Of a DNA stretch of 64,000 bases, positions 30,061 to 38,605 are shown one piece after another. The stretch comes from Candidatus Nomurabacteria bacterium. Lineage in GTDB: Bacteria; Patescibacteriota; Minisyncoccia; Phycocordibacterales; UBA918. The notes beneath the pieces were generated by a model. It saw nothing but the letters and a program-made list of their open reading frames with translations. It searched no databases and had not been told where the DNA came from. Location of the stretch: positions 893,932 through 957,931 of the forward strand of contig CP060227.1 of assembly GCA_023898525.1 (NCBI GenBank). The letters are read 5' to 3'. How positions within the stretch are numbered: the first letter of the stretch is position 1; every line of letters starts with the position of its first letter. Position numbers and translations under genes: made by a program.

Positions 30061-30499
30061 TAAAAGTCAAAGGTTTATTTCAATAGTTCGATTCCCGGTA
30101 GGGTTCAACCATTATTTTCAGTTGCTGCAACTTTTATACCCATAACCCAAAACACAACATCGCCCTTAAAATAAGGGCAATGTTGTGTTTTGGGTGACAA
30201 TTTGCACTGGTGGCAAGTTATCTAGTCGTTGTGAACCATACCGAGCCACATCTCGAACTTTTGTTGCAAAATCCAGTAATAGCTCGAAAAAGATATTTAA
30301 ACTTATACATGACAAGGAACCAGCTGGTAATGAATAGGAGAAACAAACTACTTAACACTATTTATGAATCTTTATACATACTCTCAAAAAATGTATAACC
30401 TGGATAGGATGGAGAAGATGCATCAATGGTAATTTCCATCACAACCTCATCGTCCTCTTGACTGCTATATTGTGTATGCTTTGATATACTGATGGTCGT

Positions 30500-31321
30500 A
30501 TGTCTATCTCCCTTACATCAACTGAAAAAGAAGTTATCTATCTTGTCGCAGTGATTGAATCTATTGATTCAGTGGTTAACAATGTTATTTTTGAACTTAT
30601 TGGAGATGATACTCAGTCACAAATCTTGTTTCGTGACGAAAATGCACAACGCTTGTTTAATATATATCTCGTAGACTTCCTGTCTACCACTGATAAACAT
30701 AAACATGCACCTGTTCCAAGAAAGTCTTATCTAAAAGCACTCCATGAAATTACTGAAAACCCAACTTTTTCGAATGACATGATTAAAAATCTTAAACTCT
30801 CCGTCAATTCGTTTAAAGAATGGTTGGATGCAGAGGTGTCCGTTAAAGTCTATTTTCCTTCAATTAATTATGATGGTGAGATACGATTATCTAGATCGTT
30901 ATTTATTAAAATGTGTGGAAATTTATCTAAACACAATATTCTGCGATCAGTGGGTATCGCGATAGATATTATGGATGTTTTAGAGAAGGAAGGTGTTCAG
31001 ATTACAAAGGAAGAATCAATGTTTGTATTGAATGAATTCTATGAGTGGTTTCATGACGATATCCTCAACTATCACGGAACCACAATCGTAGAATTTCTCA
31101 ACAATATTCGTTGGGATATTTACGAATACTTAAAGACTGAGCATCAAGGTAGTATTACTTGGGACTATAATTCTGACCCCAAGAGATATGCATACAACAT
31201 CCCACCAGGAATAGAAAGTGATTTTGGAAAAAAGTGGTATTGGAGTCTTATGAACAAGGTTAAACATCCACCGCACATTAGACAATTCATAGCAACGGAA
31301 TTTTCAAAAAATGGATTTTGA
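30500..31321 (+). CDS. Hypothetical protein that flanks the island on the left
   Basis: 273-aa ORF; no recognisable domain. Confidence 0.3.
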   Translation: MSISLTSTEKEVIYLVAVIESIDSVVNNVIFELIGDDTQSQILFRDENAQRLFNIYLVDFLSTTDKHKHAPVPRKSYLKALHEITENPTFSNDMIKNLKLSVNSFKEWLDAEVSVKVYFPSINYDGEIRLSRSLFIKMCGNLSKHNILRSVGIAIDIMDVLEKEGVQITKEESMFVLNEFYEWFHDDILNYHGTTIVEFLNNIRWDIYEYLKTEHQGSITWDYNSDPKRYAYNIPPGIESDFGKKWYWSLMNKVKHPPHIRQFIATEFSKNGF

Positions 31322-31510
31322 CATACTAATCAAATGTATAAAAACACTACTCCCTTTACTTTACTGACTCAATCAAGTCTGAATTAGAGTCATATGACTG
31401 GTTCGATTCCCCTTAAGGTATGAAATTTTGAATCAAAATTTGCACTTTTGGTAATCAAAATATGGCTTATTTTAATGTTGGATGGATAGAAATGTTACCA
31501 AAAATAACAT

Positions 31511-31754
31511 TCCTCTCTATGTGATGTATTAGCGCACCGCGCTCTAACTCACTACATCGCGAAGCGGTGAACCAACAACGCGCGGAGCGCGTGGTGATGC
31601 GGACGTGAAGCGTACGCATTCGGGAACCTCTGCGCGCCTCGCTGCCTCGCTCCACTCGGCCCCCAAAACCAAAGAAATTTCCTTACAATCATTTTTTCGG
31701 TGGAGGGGTCTGGGGAGGAGCCGACATAAAAAGGAAAGGATATTTCTTTGGTTT
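31511..31754. repeat. GC-rich long inverted repeat, copy A (about 244 bp), the left boundary of the R-M module
   Basis: Exact reverse complement of 36601-36845 on base-by-base comparison. Confidence 0.9.
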
Positions 31755-32100
31755 GGGATCGCCGCTTCGTCCTCCAAAAAGCTCCGTTTCAGTCTCCATT
31801 TATTTGAGAGTCTTCCACTTCGCTTTTCTCCGTACTCGCGGCGTGCGAGGCGCGCTCCCGTAGCGTACCCGCGTGGTAATTCTAGCGTTCGCTCACCACA
31901 CTCTAGCACCTCCGCACTGCTCGCTCGCTTCGCTCGCGCGAGCTGCTGCGGTGCTTCCGTGTGTGAGCTTGGTGGCTTCGGTTGGGTTCGTGGTTTTCAA
32001 AGTGGTTTGCGCTGACGCGCAAGCAAGTCTGTATGTGCTTGTCCCACCCTCCCAATACGCGCACAAACAACCCCGCCTAGCGTCGGGGTTGTTGCTCCCT

Positions 32101-33720
32101 CTAATTCTTTTTTAGGATTTTTTCCTTTCCGACCAAGTTTAGGATTTTCGGGGAAGCGTCTTTTAGAGAAATCAATGTCAATTTCTTTTTCGCCCGTGTT
32201 ATCCCGACTAAAAATTCACATATTTTATGATCAGTAAACTTCTTGGTGTCCTTATCTAAAATATGTTCATCATCTATTCCTACATAATACACAAAATCCG
32301 CAGAGAGTCCCTTGGAGCTCGTAACAGTAGTTAGCTCAACTTCTATAGCGTCTTTTTTATTTGACTCAAAACCTCTGACAATCTTTGTCAGGATATTTTT
32401 TAGATTAAAAATTTTACTAAATCGTTCTAACTCTGTCTTGCTCAGTTCTTTTTTGCCAGTTTTAACCTTTTTGAAAATATTGATATCTTCTTCTATTTTT
32501 CCTTTTATGCCATCATCTAGACAATTCCATATTTTCTTTTGTTTCTCATTACTTTCATTTATAACCTCCTTCCTTTTTGTCTCATCTAAATACAAGGGTA
32601 AAATCTTCCTAAGAGCCAAATTATCAGTCTTCCTTTTTAGAAGAATTTCGAATACTTCACATAGCTTCCTGTGTTTAATTTTATTTCGCTCCTCGTTAGA
32701 AAACAATTCAACACCAACAACGGTAAATCCTTTTTTCATCAAACCCTCATATACAGTTTGTTTTAGATATGATGGCGTTAAAATCAGTACTCTCTGTTTA
32801 TCTTTGTACTCCTCAAGATCTTCTTCAATCATTTTTGACAATCTGTACGCAAGTTGATTTCCGATTACCGAGGGTACAAAAGTTATTTGTGCATATTTCT
32901 TACTTTCTTCATCTTTGTGTCCCTCTGGATACAAGAACTCCTTTTCCAGTCTTTCGTCCAAACATCCATTTGTTTTTGCATTCCGTATCAAATCATTAGT
33001 AGTCTCTATGATAACTTTTGGACATCTATAACAATAATCCAGCGAAAATCCTTCAGTGTCACCGTCGTTGTATAAACTTCTTATTTGAGATGGCTTTGCC
33101 TGTTTAAAATGGTACAGAGACTGGTCGTCATCACCAACTAAGATCACAGTACTCTGTTTGTTGAGAAATTTTATCAGCTCATACTCCGATTTATTGAAGT
33201 CTTGGAATTCATCAACTAAAATCAGATCGTACGTTGGTATCTTTGACTCATTTTGTTGAAAAAGAAGATTTGCAGCGTAAACAACTGAATTAAATGAATA
33301 TAATTTTCCGTTTGAGCTGTAGAATTCCTTTCTCTGTTTGTAGAACTCTTTTTCGTTATCAGTCAAATCGTTATCATGAAACTTTTTCTCGTAGTTAATT
33401 TTACTGCCGTGAATAAAAGAGTAGTCTTCACTTATATACTTGTCTAAATCCTCATCTAAATCACAATCTTCTTCTTTGACGAGTATGCTTCTGGCGAAAG
33501 CATGTAATGTTGAGACATCAACGTTGGGAAAATCGTTAAACTCCTCAGATAAATCATCAATAAGTTTATTTATAAAAGATAATATAAGTATTTTCTTACC
33601 TTTATATTCCTCTGATTTAATTATAGTCCCAAATGTAAAACTTTTACCGGTTCCAGGTCCAGCTAATCCGACAAACAACTTTTTATCTGACTGTTTTATT
33701 TTTTCTAGAATATCAGTCAT
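32101..33720 (-). CDS. UvrD/Rep-like superfamily-1 helicase
   Basis: Walker A GLAGPGTGKS, Walker B/motif II LILVDEFQD, motif III VGDDDQSLY, and a C-terminal UvrD_C-like region. Confidence 0.7.
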   Translation of the reverse strand: MTDILEKIKQSDKKLFVGLAGPGTGKSFTFGTIIKSEEYKGKKILILSFINKLIDDLSEEFNDFPNVDVSTLHAFARSILVKEEDCDLDEDLDKYISEDYSFIHGSKINYEKKFHDNDLTDNEKEFYKQRKEFYSSNGKLYSFNSVVYAANLLFQQNESKIPTYDLILVDEFQDFNKSEYELIKFLNKQSTVILVGDDDQSLYHFKQAKPSQIRSLYNDGDTEGFSLDYCYRCPKVIIETTNDLIRNAKTNGCLDERLEKEFLYPEGHKDEESKKYAQITFVPSVIGNQLAYRLSKMIEEDLEEYKDKQRVLILTPSYLKQTVYEGLMKKGFTVVGVELFSNEERNKIKHRKLCEVFEILLKRKTDNLALRKILPLYLDETKRKEVINESNEKQKKIWNCLDDGIKGKIEEDINIFKKVKTGKKELSKTELERFSKIFNLKNILTKIVRGFESNKKDAIEVELTTVTSSKGLSADFVYYVGIDDEHILDKDTKKFTDHKICEFLVGITRAKKKLTLISLKDASPKILNLVGKEKILKKN

Positions 33721-33724
33721 GGAT

Positions 33725-34471
33725 TTATTTCTGAAACACGAACAAATGTTCGTGCATTATTAGCAAGAAATTGCTTTCTTTTGATTTGTTAACCCAAAAA
33801 CCAGTCGCTTTGCAGTTGTATTGTCGCTTGATGATGTCTTCCTTGAGATCAAAACCAGCGTTTAGAAAGCGATCCATAACACGATATGCAAGCGGTTGAT
33901 ACATTTTTTGTCGACGGGTGTCACCAATCAGAATCGCACAAAATTTTCCTGGTTTTAAGACGCGGTACAGTTCTTTTGCAACCTTTTCCATTTCGTCGGC
34001 AAATTCTTCAATTCCGTGGATGTTTGAAAGATCTTCGTTAATTTCTCCTTCACTGTATTTGATTATGTCAGCGTAGGGCGGGTGTGTGAGAATAAAATCA
34101 ATGCTCTCATTCTCGGCTTTGACGAGGTTGCGCGCGTCACGTTTTGCCACTTTTTGCCAAGCTTTGTTCTCAACGGGAAACTTCAAACTTTCTTTCGTTC
34201 GCTCCAAGGCAACATCGTTTACATCTGAACAAATGATATTGCGGTTGAGTATTTTTGCTTCAATCGCTGTCGTACCACCACCAATCATTGGATCAAGCAA
34301 AATATCACCCTCGTTGGAGTAACGGAGAATAAGATTGCGCGCGACTTCTGGTGACCAGTTGCCGCGCCAGTCTGACTTATGCGTTGCCCAATTCCCGCGA
34401 CGAGGAAAAGCCCACACCGTCGTGCATTCAAGATCAAATTCATCGGGGTGTAGTTTCATTTCCTTTGCCAT
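33725..34471 (-). CDS. Beta-class N6-adenine/N4-cytosine DNA methyltransferase (DpnA / M2.DpnII-like)
   Basis: Motif order is SAM-binding DPMIGGGTT and then the catalytic THPPY (DPPY-like), as in PF01555 methyltransferases. Confidence 0.75.
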   Translation of the reverse strand: MAKEMKLHPDEFDLECTTVWAFPRRGNWATHKSDWRGNWSPEVARNLILRYSNEGDILLDPMIGGGTTAIEAKILNRNIICSDVNDVALERTKESLKFPVENKAWQKVAKRDARNLVKAENESIDFILTHPPYADIIKYSEGEINEDLSNIHGIEEFADEMEKVAKELYRVLKPGKFCAILIGDTRRQKMYQPLAYRVMDRFLNAGFDLKEDIIKRQYNCKATGFWVNKSKESNFLLIMHEHLFVFQK

Positions 34472-34475
34472 TGTT

Positions 34476-35336
34476 TTACCAAGTTAGTTCATTGAGTACG
34501 TCGTCCTCAAGCATTTTGAGATTAAAAACTTGACCTTTGTTGTGTTCAAAAGTTTCTTCAAGTGGTCGCTTTGTGGTTTCCCAGCCGAGTCCGTCTGTAA
34601 CCCAAACAAAATCAATATCTTGTTTTGTTAGCTCGTCATATAAACTACGGAATTCGCCACACACCGCCTTTAGTTTTGAGCCACCTCCGTTATAGAAGTT
34701 TGTCTCAAACAATTTTAGTTTTTTGGTCTGTGGATTGTATACAGCGAAATCAAAGCTTCGTTCTGATTTATCGACATTTATTTCGTAGCTCCATTTGGCT
34801 TTGATGTCGGTTGCTCGTGCTTGGGCGATGTATTCAAAGCCACGTTTTTCTGAAAAATCTTTGACGTACGATTCCACAATTTCTTCCATGAGTGTTCCTC
34901 CACGGTTTTTTCGTCCGTTGCTATCCAACCCAACCTCGACTCCCATAACATAATCGACAAGATTTTTGATTCCATCTTTTTGGAAAAGGCGAGCAAGCCC
35001 AGATTTTTCGATAAACTCGAAATACTTTTCGGCACCATCTTCTCCGTTGGAGAAATCGAAAAACTCCGAATCTTTGGTGACCTTATCAAAAATCTCAAGT
35101 TTGTTTTCGCGTACTGCTAACAAGACAGGCAACGCTTTTACAATATCAGGATTTGATTCGTAGAGCTTTGCAAATTCTTCCGTTAGATTTTCCTTGCCGA
35201 GCAAGTAATTGAGTTTGTTTAGGGAAATCTCAAGATCAGTGGCGTTTGTGGTAACTTTGTCCCAATTTACAAAATAATCCCATGTTTTTATGGAGCTTTT
35301 GAAACCGTCCACCAGTTCTGTAAATGTTTTGTTCAT
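34476..35336 (-). CDS. DpnII/MboI-family type II restriction endonuclease (GATC-type)
   Basis: Blocks LNYLLGK, IKNLVDYVMGVEVGLDSNGRKNRGG, ETNFYNGGGSKL and FVWVTDGLGW are as I remember them from the DpnII family; the length is 286 aa. Confidence 0.65.
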   Translation of the reverse strand: MNKTFTELVDGFKSSIKTWDYFVNWDKVTTNATDLEISLNKLNYLLGKENLTEEFAKLYESNPDIVKALPVLLAVRENKLEIFDKVTKDSEFFDFSNGEDGAEKYFEFIEKSGLARLFQKDGIKNLVDYVMGVEVGLDSNGRKNRGGTLMEEIVESYVKDFSEKRGFEYIAQARATDIKAKWSYEINVDKSERSFDFAVYNPQTKKLKLFETNFYNGGGSKLKAVCGEFRSLYDELTKQDIDFVWVTDGLGWETTKRPLEETFEHNKGQVFNLKMLEDDVLNELTW

Positions 35337-35341
35337 ATCAT

Positions 35342-36298
35342 TCAGTAATTAGTTACTAATACCTCGCTAATCTTTCCGCGCTTTGCGGCGTTTGAGTTTA
35401 TTGCACGTCCTGCAGCGACTTTCGACACTTTTACGCCTTTGATTCCCGAGTAGAGTTTGTTAATGAAAGGAGTGTCAGAGTTAGAAAGCATGACGTAACA
35501 ACCGCGTTTGTGTAATTCGAAAAATGTATCTCTCAATTCCGCTTGCTCCTTGTCCAAGAATGAATCTGCAGTGTACGAAGTGAAAGACGCCGTCTTGCTC
35601 ACGGGATAGTATGGCGGATCAAAATATACAAAGTCTTCTTTCTTTGCTTTTTTAAGTACCGCTTTGTAGTCTTGGTTTTTAACGGTGACTTTTTGCAATG
35701 CTTTTGACACTTTGCGCAAGTTTTCCTCGTCGCAAATTATAGGGTTTGTATATTTACCAAACGGTACATTGAAACCGCCTTTGCTGTTGACTCGGTACAT
35801 TCCATTGAAACAAGTTCGGTTTAGGAAAATAAAACGTGACGCAACATCAATATCTGACAATGCTTTTGGATCCCTTGCGCGCACTTCAAGGTAATACTCT
35901 TTTTCGTATTTGTGTTTTTTGAGAGATTTAATCAGTGCATCAACGTCATTTTTAATGACGTTATAGGTTACTACAAGTTCGTTGTTTAGATCTGAAAGTT
36001 CTGCTTTTTTTGGGAGAAGATCGAAAAAGACAGCACCTCCACCAACAAACGGTTCAAAGTAAGTATTTGTGACAGGATCAAAATCATCTGGTGGGTATAA
36101 CCCCATATCGCGGAATTGTTGGAGGAGTTGTCTTTTCCCACCAACCCATTTCACAAACGGCTTCGGCTTCTCATTAACAATTCGAGTAGCGTCCTCAAAC
36201 AATCGTGTTTTGTCTGCATTATGGAAAACATGATGCGCGTAGATTTTGTTGATATTTAACTCATGTGCGAGTTTTGTGATTGTTTGTTGCGTAGTCAT
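35342..36298 (-). CDS. Dam-like (alpha-class, D12) N6-adenine DNA methyltransferase (DpnM-like)
   Basis: VKWVGGKRQLL, FEPFVGGGAVFF and DPPYYP motifs. Confidence 0.8.
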   Translation of the reverse strand: MTTQQTITKLAHELNINKIYAHHVFHNADKTRLFEDATRIVNEKPKPFVKWVGGKRQLLQQFRDMGLYPPDDFDPVTNTYFEPFVGGGAVFFDLLPKKAELSDLNNELVVTYNVIKNDVDALIKSLKKHKYEKEYYLEVRARDPKALSDIDVASRFIFLNRTCFNGMYRVNSKGGFNVPFGKYTNPIICDEENLRKVSKALQKVTVKNQDYKAVLKKAKKEDFVYFDPPYYPVSKTASFTSYTADSFLDKEQAELRDTFFELHKRGCYVMLSNSDTPFINKLYSGIKGVKVSKVAAGRAINSNAAKRGKISEVLVTNY

Positions 36299-36302
36299 AA
36301 CT

Positions 36303-36506
36303 TTATTTTAGCAGTTCTGTGGTGCTAACTCCGAGTACCTTAGCTAGTTTGGAAATTGTCTCAAGGGTGGGGTTTGTTTTTCCGTTTTCGATATTGCTGA
36401 CATAACTGCGACTACAACCCATACCGCGCATAACATCACCTTGAGACATCCTTTTCGCTTCGCGAATCCTTTTCAAATTATTGCCGAGTTTTGTGGAATC
36501 ATTCAT
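36303..36506 (-). CDS. XRE-family HTH regulator, probably the controller (C) protein of the R-M operon
   Basis: 67 aa; LKRIREAKRMSQGDVMRGMGCSRSYVSNIENG is a classic XRE HTH. It is the first gene of the co-oriented cluster. Confidence 0.65.
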   Translation of the reverse strand: MNDSTKLGNNLKRIREAKRMSQGDVMRGMGCSRSYVSNIENGKTNPTLETISKLAKVLGVSTTELLK

Positions 36507-36600
36507 TCACACAATTATACCCAACTCTTACATTATACACGACTATTATATTTTAGTATAATAGGGTAATGGTGGAGAAAATGATTTTTAGGGACTCATT

Positions 36601-36845
36601 GCGGCGATCCCAAACCAAAGAAATATCCTTTCCTTTTTATGTCGGCTCCTCCCCAGACCCCTCCACCGAAAAAATGATTGTAAGGAAATTTCTTTGGTTT
36701 TGGGGGCCGAGTGGAGCGAGGCAGCGAGGCGCGCAGAGGTTCCCGAATGCGTACGCTTCACGTCCGCATCACCACGCGCTCCGCGCGTTGTTGGTTCACC
36801 GCTTCGCGATGTAGTGAGTTAGAGCGCGGTGCGCTAATACATCAC
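36601..36845. repeat. GC-rich long inverted repeat, copy A' (the partner of 31511-31754)
   Basis: See copy A. Confidence 0.9.
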
Positions 36846-36954
36846 CAATCGAAACAAACTCGGGAGCAAGGCCGCCTGCGGCGGCTATGGGGGCAATATG
36901 GCGGCGGCGTGCCGCCGCGCCCTGGGCAAAAGCAGCCTTTGTTTCTGCCACGCA
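36842..36954. repeat. GC-rich inverted repeat, copy B (about 113 bp), immediately upstream of the recombinase start
   Basis: Exact reverse complement of 38424-38536. Confidence 0.9.
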
Positions 36955-36986
36955 CTGCGTAATCCCAAAGTGAAACCCAGTACATT

Positions 36987-38594
36987 ATGAAAGAACTCAA
37001 ACCAAAATATGTTCTCTACGCTCGCAAGAGTACGGAAGATGATGATAAACAAGTAATGAGTATTGAAGCTCAGTTAGTTGAGTTGCATGAGTTTGCGCGT
37101 AGAGAACAACTTGAAATCCTATCGGAGTTTCAAGAGTCAAAAAGCGCAAAGACGCCCGGGCGTGAGACGTTTGGTGAGATGATGGCGTTTATTGAAAATC
37201 ATAACGAGCCACTTGGTATTCTCGCGTGGCACCCCGATCGTCTCGCTCGCAATTCGATAGACGGTGGGCGTATCGTGTATGCAGTGGACACAGGGAGTAT
37301 CGCGTCTTTGCGCTTTCCGACCTTTTGGTTTGAGCCAACGCCGCAAGGAAAGTTCATGTTGCAAGTGGCGTTCGGTCAGTCGAAATATTTTTCGGATAAC
37401 TTAGTAGAAAACGTGAAGCGTGGAATGCGCCAAAAACTTCGCCGTGGTGAATGGTTGACCAAAGCCCCGTTTGGGTATGTGAACAATCCAAAGACTCGCA
37501 ATATCGAACCGCATCCTGTGTATTCAAAGATTGTGGTGCGGGGCTTTGAAGAATATGCCAAAGGCACATACACCATAGAATCATTGGCGAAGTTTTTGGC
37601 TGACCTCGGTTTGGAAACCAAGAACCGAACACCACTTGGCAAAGCTTCCATTGTGCGGATGCTTTCTAACCGAGCGTATATCGGATTTATCAAATACAAA
37701 GATGAATGGCACGAAGGAAGCTTTGCGCCGATTATCACTCCCACACTGTTTGAAGCAGTCCAAAAGGTGCTCGAAACAAAACGGCGGCCTCGGGTACAGA
37801 AAGAACCACATAATTTTCCACTCACGCAGTTTGCCGAGTGCGGTGAGTGTGGCGGCATGATAACTGCTCAGTACACTACTAACAGGCATGGTACGAAGTA
37901 TGCGTATTATCGCTGTACTCAAAAGAAAGGATCATGCCGCCAACCGTACGTGGCCACCGCTTTGTTGGAGACACAAGTGAATGACATGCTTCAAACAGTT
38001 GCACTGCCGTCAGTGGAGATAGACAAGATTGATGGGTGGATTGTACGCTGGGAGCGTGAACAAACCGCTGATGACGGCAGTGCTGCCCGAGACCTTAAAA
38101 ATGAGATTGCGAGCGTGCAAGAGAAGCTTGATCGCTTAGTTTCTCTGTACCTTGATGGCGATATAGAGCGCGATAGTTATCTCGACCGCAAAGACAAGCT
38201 GATGCGCGAAAAAACGACGCTCGCTGAGAAATTGAATGGTCTCGGGCGTGGGAGTGATAATCGGCTCCAACCCTTGCGGCGTTTCGTTTTGTCTTTAAGA
38301 GAAGCCGTGAATTTGATAGAGAGCGGTGAGATGCACGAAAAACGTGACTTTCTGAAAAAGCTCGGCTCTAACCCTTCTCTTAAAGACAAAACACTTTCAT
38401 TGCACTGGGATGCACTTTGGGATGGCGTGGCAGAAACAAAGGCTGCTTTTGCCCAGGGCGCGGCGGCACGCCGCCGCCATATTGCCCCCATAGCCGCCGC
38501 AGGCGGCCTTGCTCCCGAGTTTGTTTCGATTGGTGACCCTACGGGGAATCGAACCCCGATTTGCAGGATGAGAACCTGCTGTCCTAGCCGTTAG
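36987..38594 (+). CDS. Large serine recombinase (resolvase domain + recombinase domain + zinc ribbon + coiled coil). The C-terminal ~55 aa are encoded by repeat B' and the tRNA-Glu 3' region and are probably not native
   Basis: N-terminal YARKSTEDDD..S (catalytic Ser region), Cys-rich CGECGG...YYRC zinc ribbon, then a coiled-coil. The tail is Ala/Gly/Arg-rich and comes from GC-rich repeat DNA. Confidence 0.8.
   Translation: MKELKPKYVLYARKSTEDDDKQVMSIEAQLVELHEFARREQLEILSEFQESKSAKTPGRETFGEMMAFIENHNEPLGILAWHPDRLARNSIDGGRIVYAVDTGSIASLRFPTFWFEPTPQGKFMLQVAFGQSKYFSDNLVENVKRGMRQKLRRGEWLTKAPFGYVNNPKTRNIEPHPVYSKIVVRGFEEYAKGTYTIESLAKFLADLGLETKNRTPLGKASIVRMLSNRAYIGFIKYKDEWHEGSFAPIITPTLFEAVQKVLETKRRPRVQKEPHNFPLTQFAECGECGGMITAQYTTNRHGTKYAYYRCTQKKGSCRQPYVATALLETQVNDMLQTVALPSVEIDKIDGWIVRWEREQTADDGSAARDLKNEIASVQEKLDRLVSLYLDGDIERDSYLDRKDKLMREKTTLAEKLNGLGRGSDNRLQPLRRFVLSLREAVNLIESGEMHEKRDFLKKLGSNPSLKDKTLSLHWDALWDGVAETKAAFAQGAAARRRHIAPIAAAGGLAPEFVSIGDPTGNRTPICRMRTCCPSR
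38424..38536. repeat. GC-rich inverted repeat, copy B' (the partner of 36842-36954)
   Basis: See copy B; it ends within the CCA end of tRNA-Glu. Confidence 0.9.
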
Positions 38595-38605
38595 ACGATA
38601 GGGCC
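38531..38605 (-). tRNA. tRNA-Glu (anticodon CTC) with an encoded CCA
   Basis: Reverse complement GGCCCTATCGTCTAACGGCTAGGACAGCAGGTTCTCATCCTGCAAATCGGGGTTCGATTCCCCGTAGGGTCACCA forms a cloverleaf with anticodon loop TTCTCAT. Confidence 0.8.

Follow-up and report, generated by a model that had tools for sequence, protein, structure and literature searches.

The window, the whole 64,000-nucleotide stretch of DNA that was analysed, contains what is probably an integrative island of about 7 kb (31521-38536), driven by a large serine recombinase (LSR) and inserted at the 3' end of a tRNA-Glu gene, a reading to which we assign a probability of roughly 75%. The island's attachment region, A'.TCAC.B, would measure about 350 bp and be present twice in inverted orientation (Table 1). 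One copy (36601-36953) would be intact and internal, lying between the leftward-transcribed cargo and the rightward-transcribed recombinase gene. The other would have been split by integration, with its A half joined to the former downstream flank of the tRNA at an attR-type junction (31521) and its B half adjoining the tRNA at an attL-type junction (38536). Because the internal copy is intact and the other copy is split, B/B' and A/A' are read as one attP-type sequence whose two arms appear in three sites.

An inverted-repeat search of the window shows that B and B' are 100% complementary over 112 nt and separated by 1471 nt. The exact inverted repeat claimed in the original prediction is therefore real but one base pair shorter than the 113 bp given, as the pair 36954 (a) and 38424 (g) is mismatched. 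A perfect inverted repeat of 112 nt cannot occur by chance within 64 kb. With mismatches allowed, the B/B' repeat is prolonged to 36993 and 38394 (152 nt, 91%), past the recombinase start codon at 36987; arm B, which holds two GC-rich hairpins, is thus perfect up to 36953 and imperfect up to 36993, and the imperfect part on the B' side begins at 38394 (codon 470). A second inverted pair, A and A', is 245 nt long and also 100% complementary, and A' overlaps B by the four bases TCAC, in agreement with the predicted nesting of the two pairs. Several further elements of the prediction hold as well: the recombinase open reading frame enters B' at codon 480, its tail is translated from repeat DNA (codons 480-516) and, over the 19 codons that end it, from antisense tRNA sequence, the motif CACCAATCGAAAC can be read off the sequence in both B and B', and the repeat stops at the CCA end of tRNA-Glu. 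Given the position of the tRNA on the minus strand (ARAGORN, Rfam), B' includes its final six bases, TCACCA. To the left of arm A lies the native downstream region of the tRNA.

Alignment of the three junctions reads GGG-TCAC-CAATCG at the tRNA (site 3), ACA-TCAC-CAATCG at A' in site 2 and ACA-TCAC-ATAGAG at A' in site 1. TCAC is the sole sequence common to all three, and the crossover must therefore fall there. The hybrid junctions surround this shared core and leave the target tRNA-Glu intact (59.5 bits, Rfam RF00005), its last bases (..CA) being supplied by the island; the same junction logic is found in about 60 relatives. The predicted empty site would read tRNA-Glu ..GGGTCAC followed by ATAGAGAGG, and the free form would be a circle carrying two inverted attP copies. 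We infer excision and this two-attP circle rather than observe them, because neither an empty attB nor another copy of the junction was found for this element: exact-match scans of metagenome contigs gave 0 matches to the predicted empty tRNA-Glu site and to the A'/B junction. The exact recombinase protein has no record elsewhere.

Table 1. Features of the proposed island and its target, with roles as read under the island interpretation.
Feature	Position	Strand	Role or basis
Arm A	31521..31765		outer cargo-side attP arm copy, attR-type junction with the chromosome; core GTGA 31521-31524
GC-rich (about 60%) non-coding stretch	31766..32100		cargo 3' end; no repeat of it elsewhere in the window
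UvrD-like superfamily-1 helicase	32101..33720	-	Pfam PF00580, PF13245, PF13361
N4/N6 DNA methyltransferase	33725..34471	-	Pfam PF01555
DpnII-type restriction endonuclease	34476..35336	-	Pfam PF04556, E = 1.9e-91
D12-class (Dam-like) N6-adenine methyltransferase	35342..36298	-	Pfam PF02086
Small helix-turn-helix protein	36303..36506	-	Pfam PF01381; position of a restriction-modification controller (C) protein
Arm A'	36601..36845		inner cargo-side attP arm copy, left half of the intact internal attP-type site
Core TCAC, internal attP-type site	36842..36845	+	three-junction alignment
Arm B	36842..36953		recombinase-side attP arm, entire 5' leader of the recombinase gene
Large serine recombinase	36987..38594	+	Pfam Resolvase, Recombinase and Zn_ribbon_recom domains
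Arm B'	38425..38536		recombinase-side arm in the attL-type junction with the tRNA; core GTGA 38533-38536
tRNA-Glu(CTC)	38531..38605	-	integration target, attB left arm; ARAGORN, Rfam RF00005

The recombinase comprises 535 aa in the integrated state and a predicted 531 aa in the attP form. The enzyme carries the full set of integrase-class domains, as shown by a catalytic domain at residues 9-156 (PF00239, E = 5e-20) with R13 and S15 invariant among 34 sequences, a C-terminal recombinase domain and zinc ribbon (PF07508, PF13408), and, in the AlphaFold model, long helices at residues 342-420 between the zinc-ribbon strands that correspond to the inserted coiled coil. Solved integrases resemble it only weakly in sequence (E about 1e-8); the alignment to the A118 integrase spans residues 224-396, and homology extends also to the SPbeta integrase. 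The AlphaFold model is folded up to about residue 480, and residues 491-535 have pLDDT values below 50.

The tail encoded by B' accounts for residues 480-516, the frame crossing the core at codon 516. The original prediction held that the true C-terminus had probably been replaced or the frame artificially extended, and proposed the end of homology as the deciding observation. Homology to solved integrases is detectable only to about residue 396, but relatives keep the tail in frame, which amounts in substance to the native tail that the prediction had named as its own refutation. The frame is open in 69/70 loci, with stops in the other two frames in 37/70 and 63/70; the tail length is always 2 mod 3, with indels in threes; and the same tail occurs in relatives at 56-91% identity, its sequence barely constrained and predicted to be disordered. 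Judged by this conservation of frame, the repeat-encoded tail of about 37 codons is native, neither a replacement nor an annotation artefact. The claim of replacement survives for the last 19 codons: only these codons past the core are exchanged by integration. The un-integrated form of the recombinase would end ...VSIGDVLAHRALTHYIAKR, and alternative endings match the translation of the A arm.

The inverted repeat around an LSR gene beside a tRNA marks a whole island family, for which at least 561 related recombinase loci were matched when one genome per species was sampled, the layout being verified in the best 80. Among 81 related recombinase genes from Patescibacteria assemblies, an inverted repeat of 105-155 nt (82-100% identity) brackets the recombinase gene in 77, and an antisense tRNA lies just past the gene, with the distal arm stopping at the tRNA 3' end, in 70. 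The tRNAs are Glu, Ala, Leu, Val, Phe or Arg, and among the assemblies are the closed chromosome CP060229.1 (L044, 995 kb) and scaffold L084 of 714 kb. In about 24 of the 45 loci with enough flank, B is adjoined by a second arm whose partner lies 1.5-9 kb upstream. Past this outer partner arm relatives usually carry an intrinsic-terminator hairpin, which fits the expectation for a region downstream of a tRNA gene. Modules that are 87-96% identical occur at tRNA-Ala(TGC), tRNA-Ala(GGC) and tRNA-Leu(CAG) in different genomes, which is indirect evidence of mobility. The arms show concerted evolution, being mostly 100% identical within a locus and 75-98% identical between related loci.

Across the family the core is xCAC, corresponding to tRNA positions 71-74. 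In A' the T-loop motif of the tRNA, GTTCG, stands off from the core by six bases more than in the tRNA arm: its distance is 24 nt in 41/51 A' arms, and that of GTTCRA is exactly 18 nt in 53/55 tRNA arms. This half-site offset agrees with that established between P-type and B-type sites of serine integrases.

The cargo is a DpnII-type restriction-modification set (Table 1). Comparison with locus L084 separates the parts of the attachment arm. At L084 the DpnII cargo of the window recurs (86.6% over 3.1 kb) beside a recombinase that is just 57% identical, and similarity between the window and L084 breaks about 45-50 nt from the core, the last ~45 nt of A' varying with the recombinase and the rest of A' with the cargo. 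The GC-rich stretch at the cargo's 3' end has no credible ORF and no Rfam match, and is 89% identical to L084:4188-4488, which adjoins the A arm of the L084 element. Only tRNAs exceed the Rfam gathering score in the whole window, and nothing reaches E <= 1 in 31300-32200. A prophage identity was considered and rejected: megablast of the island gave no match in phage records, and no relatives were present among IMG/VR contigs.

Under the island reading, integration would normally proceed through the attP copy located at the gene's 3' end, rewriting the last ~15-19 residues and leaving the other copy in place. The binding site would span about 45 nt per side, and the long perfect identity of the arms would reflect gene conversion between close inverted repeats rather than the size of the binding site. 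Instead of a single attP, the island holds an intact inverted second copy, a condition that recurs across the recombinase family. This internal attP may remain reactive, which would account for relatives with a flipped module (L014 and L045) or with a module between two complete convergent tRNA genes (L018 and L040). Locus L001 contains three modules with inverted outer cores, which a single simple integration cannot yield. With two identical attP copies on the circle, both orientations should be about equally frequent, yet about 9 of 10 loci have the gene 3' end at the tRNA. To explain this bias something more must be assumed, be it selection or a step that is specific to strand or site. The ratio of about 9:1 is a genome-level comparison only, both orientations being found among different genomes (L012 versus L014; L045). 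Where the same protein occurs on many contigs (P0103, P0015), these are all in one orientation or cut at the repeat, and the flipped L014 carries a cargo unrelated to those of its relatives.

The remaining attP copy, which in most relatives bears a -10-like box toward the recombinase gene, may also serve as a promoter or operator. In the family consensus a promoter-like element sits in the A' arm, directed across the core. A -10-like box is present in 37/51 A' arms, the window having only GCTAAT, a 4/6 match. The original prediction had pointed to possible promoter elements within B/B', and a consensus scan of both copies found no sigma-70-like promoter; the consensus promoter scan of this window's arms in general found nothing. 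A structured RNA in the GC-rich block was also rejected as a candidate, the A'B region folding, on either strand, only about 2 standard deviations better than shuffles.

An invertase-type switch, whose geometry was raised by the original prediction, would have the recombinase invert its gene across B and B', either switching its expression or altering the C-terminus, with the inverted repeats existing for that purpose; inversion is geometrically possible. The borders of the segment are strictly inverted cores inside perfect inverted arms (TCAC 36842-36845, GTGA 38533-38536), so that recombination there can only invert; flipped relatives exist (L014, L045 and, in L001, the first of its recombinases), the arms evolve in concert, and the same tail is obtainable from either arm. 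As an account of the locus, however, a switch is unlikely, and the repeats are best read as shared attachment-site arms. The orientation is about 9:1, not mixed, and the outer junctions and native tRNA flanks show an insertion that a switch alone leaves unexplained. A switch would not need identical arms, because flipping at the cores carries both arms along, and its two sites would be of attP-type and attL-type, a combination that canonical serine integrases are not known to synapse. The gene also lies within the segment and encodes an integrase-class enzyme, not one of the Hin/Gin class. Less probable still is that B-gene-B' forms a 1.7-kb IS-like serine transposon with terminal inverted repeats that inserts on its own by tRNA ends, with the cargo as a separate passenger carrying the repeats A/A'. 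Modules standing alone between two complete convergent tRNA genes, the many database contigs of 1.8-2.0 kb that contain the module only, and the pairing of the same cargo with different modules would all suit such a unit, but short module-only contigs are what assemblers make at inverted repeats, no direct target duplication is present, and the recombinase-specific unit takes in about 45 nt of A on each side. Because the 4-nt end cores are inverted, the module on its own is not excisable by a conservative serine recombinase: none of the left-core dinucleotides (TC, CA, AC) matches a right-core one (GT, TG, GA), which makes a directly repeated crossover dinucleotide impossible. A B'-to-B circle would hold two back-to-back cores, and the palindromic junction with central AT that this implies predicts an integration junction, ..TCAC-AT-CACC.., different from the one observed.

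Control at the RNA level was likewise weighed. In such a scheme leader B would pair with the coding tail B' over about 150 nt, mask the start codon and keep the recombinase low, the pairing would create a double-stranded RNA target, and the repeat would be selected for pairing. The repeat does reach the start codon or slightly beyond in most loci (inner end-to-start offset -6 to 0), the B' frame is open despite very little constraint on the amino acids it encodes, as though the passage of ribosomes were important, and each arm has two hairpins whose sequences differ between subfamilies. Folds of the arms alone, on the other hand, are mostly no better than shuffled controls, and A/A' and the shared cores are left unexplained. 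Covariation cannot separate RNA pairing from concerted evolution at the DNA level, since the latter gives the same pattern, and we regard RNA control as highly improbable. There is a negligible chance that a metagenome assembler created the perfect inverted repeats through chimeric joining. Both repeats are 100% identical and many related contigs end 100-500 bp upstream of the gene, as such joins might produce, but the DNA between the arms is unique and the layout, with differing sequences and imperfect arms (82-99%), appears in more than 70 independent assemblies, among them the closed chromosome and the 714-kb scaffold. This recurrence in independent assemblies rules out a local assembly artefact.

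The island shares its domain set (catalytic, recombinase, zinc ribbon, coiled coil) with the A118/LI Int, SPbeta SprA, phiC31 and Bxb1 enzymes, and shares with phage and element LSRs a short core, the reaction of attP with attB to form hybrid attL and attR, and an element-side arm motif further from the centre than the host-side motif. Unlike phage LSRs, the island targets the T-arm and acceptor end of tRNA genes, its attP region is duplicated and inverted on either side of the gene, and its ORF crosses the core. No directionality factor was identified for the island. The Hin/Gin/Pin switches likewise have inverted recombination sites bounding a segment, so that recombination inverts it, but their enzymes are small, have a C-terminal helix-turn-helix, lie outside the segment, use 26-34 bp sites with an enhancer and do not serve integration; the island's enzyme is a 535-aa integrase-class protein encoded inside the segment, and the orientation is strongly biased. 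Inverted sites flanking the gene of such an integrase-class enzyme are indeed unusual, as had been predicted. TnpX and TndX (Tn4451, Tn5397) are also LSRs that move a cargo element through a circular intermediate with imperfect inverted repeats as ends, but those elements have direct GA dinucleotide flanks and loosely defined targets, whereas the module cores here are inverted and the target is a tRNA 3' end.

An attP within the integrase gene, with integration altering the protein end, is known from Mx8 intP/intX and the SSV1-type integrases, and Mx8, like this island, targets a tRNA gene. Those systems use tyrosine recombinases and a single attP, whereas here the enzyme is a serine recombinase, the change is confined to about 15-19 terminal residues, and the element has a second, inverted attP. 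The proposed free circle would resemble the yeast 2-micron plasmid (FLP), in which two unique segments are split by long inverted repeats with recombinase sites. Unlike 2-micron, the island integrates into the chromosome, and it does not qualify as an autonomous replicon, no replication gene being found in this cargo or among 20 scanned cargo proteins of 15 relatives, the cargos being very diverse. The Tycheposons are site-specific cargo islands at tRNA genes as well, with tyrosine recombinases in 910/937 elements and LSRs in a minority; in the searched text of that report no attachment region duplicated in inverted orientation is described (bioRxiv 10.1101/2020.12.28.424599). A full-text literature search, of incomplete coverage, likewise found no published description of the mirrored layout.

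CTXphi offers a further parallel. In its attP(+) two inverted sites in single-stranded DNA fold into one double-stranded site, and the inverted copies here would pair perfectly when single-stranded. By analogy, the duplicated inverted attP might be a working part of the life cycle rather than a by-product, a single-stranded copy, arriving by DNA uptake or a conjugation-like route, folding on itself into a ready double-stranded attP, as in CTXphi for XerCD. Transfer of one specific strand would explain the same orientation in about 9/10 insertions. We nevertheless consider this improbable. XerCD are tyrosine recombinases that exchange one strand pair, whereas a serine recombinase cuts both strands, and a CTXphi-like route would leave a hairpin-capped chromosome. 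In a related and likewise improbable reading, the integration-dependent rewriting of the last 15-19 residues would be a built-in state sensor replacing a separate directionality factor.

The hosts are ultra-small bacteria with tiny genomes, in which few mobile elements have been characterised. The family provides dozens of natural, precisely bounded attP/attB/attL/attR sets for one enzyme clade, and its half-site offset (18 versus 24 nt), readable from sequence, helps both in understanding site recognition and in the search for new integrases acting on a universally conserved tRNA motif. It also poses the questions of why two inverted attP copies are kept, why orientation is biased, and what role a frame-conserved, sequence-free tail plays across a crossover. 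Short-read assemblies are interrupted by the arms a short way upstream of the gene, and these islands and their defence cargo are therefore probably under-counted in such genomes. The arms themselves measure 112-400 nt, though a binding site needs just tens of bases.

The recombinase gene in the window is bracketed by one pair of inverted arms, B and B', while a second pair, A and A', lies around the cargo. Repeat search bore out the inverted repeat of the original prediction at a slightly shorter length than the 113 bp claimed, the 113th pair being a mismatch. An imperfect inward extension of B/B' to 36993 and 38394 (152 nt, 91%) passes over the recombinase ATG at 36987. A' and B overlap in the four bases TCAC (36842-36845), and the final six bases of tRNA-Glu fall within B' owing to the position and strand of the tRNA gene. 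The enzyme is a large serine recombinase with every defining domain present; its reading frame runs into the perfect arm from codon 480, crosses the TCAC core at codon 516, and stops after a further 19 codons, inside the antisense tRNA.

Features of the recombinase locus and its surroundings (window coordinates)
Feature	Coordinates	Strand or orientation	Details
Arms B / B'	36842-36953 / 38425-38536	inverted	112 nt, 100% complementary, spacing 1471 nt (repeat search)
Arms A / A'	31521-31765 / 36601-36845	inverted	second perfect pair, 245 nt (repeat search)
Large serine recombinase ORF	36987-38594		all three Pfam domains of that class present
tRNA-Glu(CTC)	38531-38605	minus	
A-arm inner end, stem and loop	36609-36703 (mirror 31663-31757)		22-nt AT-rich stem, 51-nt C-rich loop
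GC-rich stretch	31766-32100		non-coding, ~60% GC
tRNA-Glu-like fragments	30077-30104 and 31392-31419	plus	AGTTCGATTCCCGGTAGGGT and GGTTCGATTCCCCTTAAGGT
ORF between the fragments	30500-31321		273 aa
Terminator-like hairpin	30145-30195		24 nt near-perfect (96% complementary), 3-nt loop

Written in a common orientation, the three junctions read tRNA..GTAGGG/TCAC/CAATCGAAAC, A'..AATACA/TCAC/CAATCGAAAC, and A'..AATACA/TCAC/ATAGAGAGG. This pattern points to an element site, A'.TCAC.B, having recombined with a host site, tRNA.TCAC.flank. The two outer junctions are the hybrid products, with crossover limited to TCAC, and the internal A'.TCAC.B, in opposite orientation, is an intact, unreacted attP-type site. 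The hybrid outer junctions and the intact internal site together place the island at 31521-38536, and it behaves as a serine-integrase island. Its cargo, entirely on the minus strand, comprises a DpnII-type restriction-modification operon, which includes two methyltransferases and a small HTH protein, and a UvrD-like helicase (Pfam). To the right of the island are chromosomal genes, for a pyridine nucleotide-disulphide oxidoreductase (Pyr_redox_2) and ftsZ.

Protein search recovered thousands of recombinase relatives, the 120 best showing 55-91% identity, lengths of ~520-535 aa, and 90-100% query coverage including the tail. Scanning a single genome per species yielded at least 561 related loci, the best 80 of them all in Patescibacteria-type assemblies. 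A bracketing inverted repeat of 105-155 nt (82-100% identity) was present in 77 of the 81 recombinase copies with enough flank, and in 70 of the 81 an antisense tRNA (Glu, Ala, Leu, Val, Phe, or Arg) follows just past the gene, with the distal arm stopping at the tRNA 3' end. Of the 45 loci whose upstream flank is long, about 24 have a further arm of 160-400 nt adjoining B, its inverted partner lying 1.5-9 kb upstream. The closed chromosome CP060229.1 (locus L044) shows the layout, as does L084, a scaffold of 714 kb with arms of 254 and 131 nt that are each 100% identical. An assembly artefact is ruled out. Many contigs (e.g. L002-L004, L008, L010, L013) stop 100-500 bp upstream of the recombinase gene, within the A' arm or slightly past it, and numerous database contigs of 1.8-2.0 kb hold the module (gene and bracketing arms) only. 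The repeats evidently break short-read assemblies, and the islands are therefore probably under-represented in genome bins.

All junctions share an xCAC core (TCAC at Glu, CCAC at Ala, GCAC at Leu and Phe) corresponding to tRNA positions 71-74. The flank past the distal junction usually opens with an intrinsic-terminator hairpin, as expected for native DNA downstream of a tRNA gene. The A' arm follows a strong consensus, ..GAAAAAAGTTCG.GCAAAg..TAtaATtAca/xCAC, with a spacing of exactly 24 nt between GTTCG and the core in 41 of 51 distinct arms; in 53 of 55 tRNA arms the T-loop GTTCRA is spaced exactly 18 nt from it. Serine integrases place the zinc-ribbon-domain motif ~5 bp further out in element-side than in host-side half-sites, and the 6-nt offset would agree with A' being a P-type arm and the tRNA a B-type arm. 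In 37 of 51 A' arms, the interval from GTTCG to the core holds a -10-like box (at least 5/6 match to TATAAT, often with TG before it) directed across the core toward B and the recombinase gene; the window's own box reads only GCTAAT, and a promoter scan of its arms found none. Certain B arms (L024, L045, L009), followed inward from the core, show a stem and then a T-run, e.g. GCGATTTTG..CAAAATCGC then GCTTTGATTTT, which could stop tRNA read-through once the island parts the tRNA from its own terminator; this is not evident in the B arm of the window.

The C-terminus of the recombinase had been thought replaced, or the ORF artificially extended. Up to the core this view fails, the recombinase frame being stop-free from residue 480 to the core in 69 of 70 loci, while stops occur in the remaining two forward frames in 37 and 63 loci and in the reverse frames in 18, 47, and 29. 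The stretch measures 89-113 nt, always 2 mod 3, and frame and length together argue that the repeat-encoded tail is translated and native to the family. Replacement applies only past the core, where integration substitutes 19 antisense-tRNA residues for 15 from arm A (535 vs 531 aa). Tails of relatives run ..VS[LIF]G and then antisense-tRNA translation such as DPTGNRT, with a minority ending in ..(I/L)(I/L)xFARTxFE, matching the translation of B' joined to A. Similarity to the solved integrases A118 and SPbeta could be detected only as far as about residue 396. The AlphaFold model is confidently folded up to about residue 480 and has pLDDT values under 50 at residues 491-535. The tail sequence is almost free of constraint, its substitutions being spread nearly evenly across codon positions (321/259/403; synonymous to non-synonymous 203:526), against 2112/1446/5000 and 3641:2882 in the preceding 100 codons. 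A third recurring ending, ..VSIVPNSHLFPKQ.., occurs in the related proteins P0019, P0053, P0073, P0076, P0092, and P0101; back-translation by eye suggests a further type of A arm, one carrying a TGnTACAAT box. The protein P0092 additionally ends in VSYTHLTLPTKA, which appears to be translated Nextera adapter, a contamination at the contig end.

Over their outer 100 nt, the two arms of a locus are mostly 100% identical to each other, against 75-98% between loci with recombinase bodies 88-96% identical, showing that the arms of one locus evolve in concert; in a few loci (L005, L014, L081) the arms are mismatched, each resembling a different relative. Modules 87-96% identical occupy tRNA-Ala(TGC), tRNA-Ala(GGC), and tRNA-Leu(CAG) in different genomes, which points to mobility. 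Cargos are unrelated between loci (NUDIX, MazF, ADP-ribosyltransferase, symporter, surface proteins, RhuM, AAA_15, methylases), mostly lie on the strand opposite the recombinase, and yielded no gene conserved across loci. L084 (3935-11589) and the window (31521-38605) share the DpnII operon, comprising HTH (67 aa), Dam-like methylase (318 aa), DpnII (286 aa), and methylase (248 aa), at 86.6% over 3.1 kb. Their recombinases are only 57% identical, an unrelated 732-aa protein takes the place of the helicase in L084, and similarity ends inside A', about 45-50 nt before the core. The same cargo beside so divergent a recombinase, with the break inside A', indicates that cargo and inner A arms were swapped by homologous recombination. 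The recombinase-specific unit is (~45 nt A'.core.B)-gene-(B'.core.~45 nt A), in which a pair of complete attP-type sites in inverted orientation encloses the gene.

Since inverted cores surround each module, a conservative serine recombinase acting on one module could do no more than invert it. The directly oriented outer sites allow the whole island to exit as a circle. The circle, carrying two inverted attP copies, would be the simplest free form; none was observed when the empty tRNA-Glu site and the A'/B junction were sought by exact match in metagenome contigs. Flipped modules occur in L014 and L045, in the order sense tRNA, B, gene. In L018 (183-2000) and L040 (9786-11610), a lone arm-gene-arm module has a complete tRNA gene on either side, the two being convergent (Ala/Ala and Leu-CAA/Leu-GAG, respectively). 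Such an arrangement would result if the internal attP recombined with another tRNA target that lies inverted on that chromosome, and it suggests that the internal attP drives chromosomal inversions. Locus L001 (5059-15294) has three modules, one cargo (ResIII, methylase, AAA_15, HTH) lying between two recombinase modules that differ from each other and have distinct B arms, with TCAC at 4/4 junctions; its far end adjoins a degenerate tRNA-Glu-like arm similar to the fragments in the window.

The long perfect arms may arise by gene conversion between close inverted repeats, extending as far as coding constraints permit, with the start codon on one side and the last folded zinc-ribbon strands on the other as probable limits; we think that this, rather than binding-site size, sets arm length. 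The model gives no account of the second attP copy or of the orientation bias, the gene's 3' end lying at the tRNA in about 9/10 insertions. Candidate reasons include the internal copy holding promoter and operator on the gene after integration, and selection against sense-oriented insertions, in which strong read-through from the tRNA would enter the recombinase gene. A strand-specific step is another candidate, in which a single-stranded element might fold its two copies into one double-stranded attP, as the single-stranded copy of CTXphi does. The recombinase tail might also act as a state sensor, with Mx8 IntP/IntX as a precedent.

Compared with other described islands, this one targets a tRNA 3' end with a P arm mimicking the T-loop, carries its attP region duplicated in inverted orientation and bracketing both gene and cargo, has a recombinase ORF that crosses the crossover point, and exchanges cargo modularly within the arms. 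We know of no description that combines these four linked features. Full-text search and individual papers, an incomplete coverage of the literature, gave no description of this layout.

The stem and loop at the inner end of the A arm are conserved, and the loop is reverse-complemented in L062 and L050, indicating a small inversion polymorphism bounded by the hairpin. The GC-rich stretch, inside AT-rich cargo, is single copy in the window and matches no Rfam family; a stretch adjoining the L084 A arm shares 89% identity with it, and patches of it also adjoin the A arms of L022, L031, L062, and L065. Immediately left of the island, on the strand opposite tRNA-Glu, are two fragments similar to that tRNA in its T-arm and acceptor 3' end, which may be scars of past recombinase events. 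The ORF between them is without Pfam match, and the terminator-like hairpin lies downstream of the first fragment.
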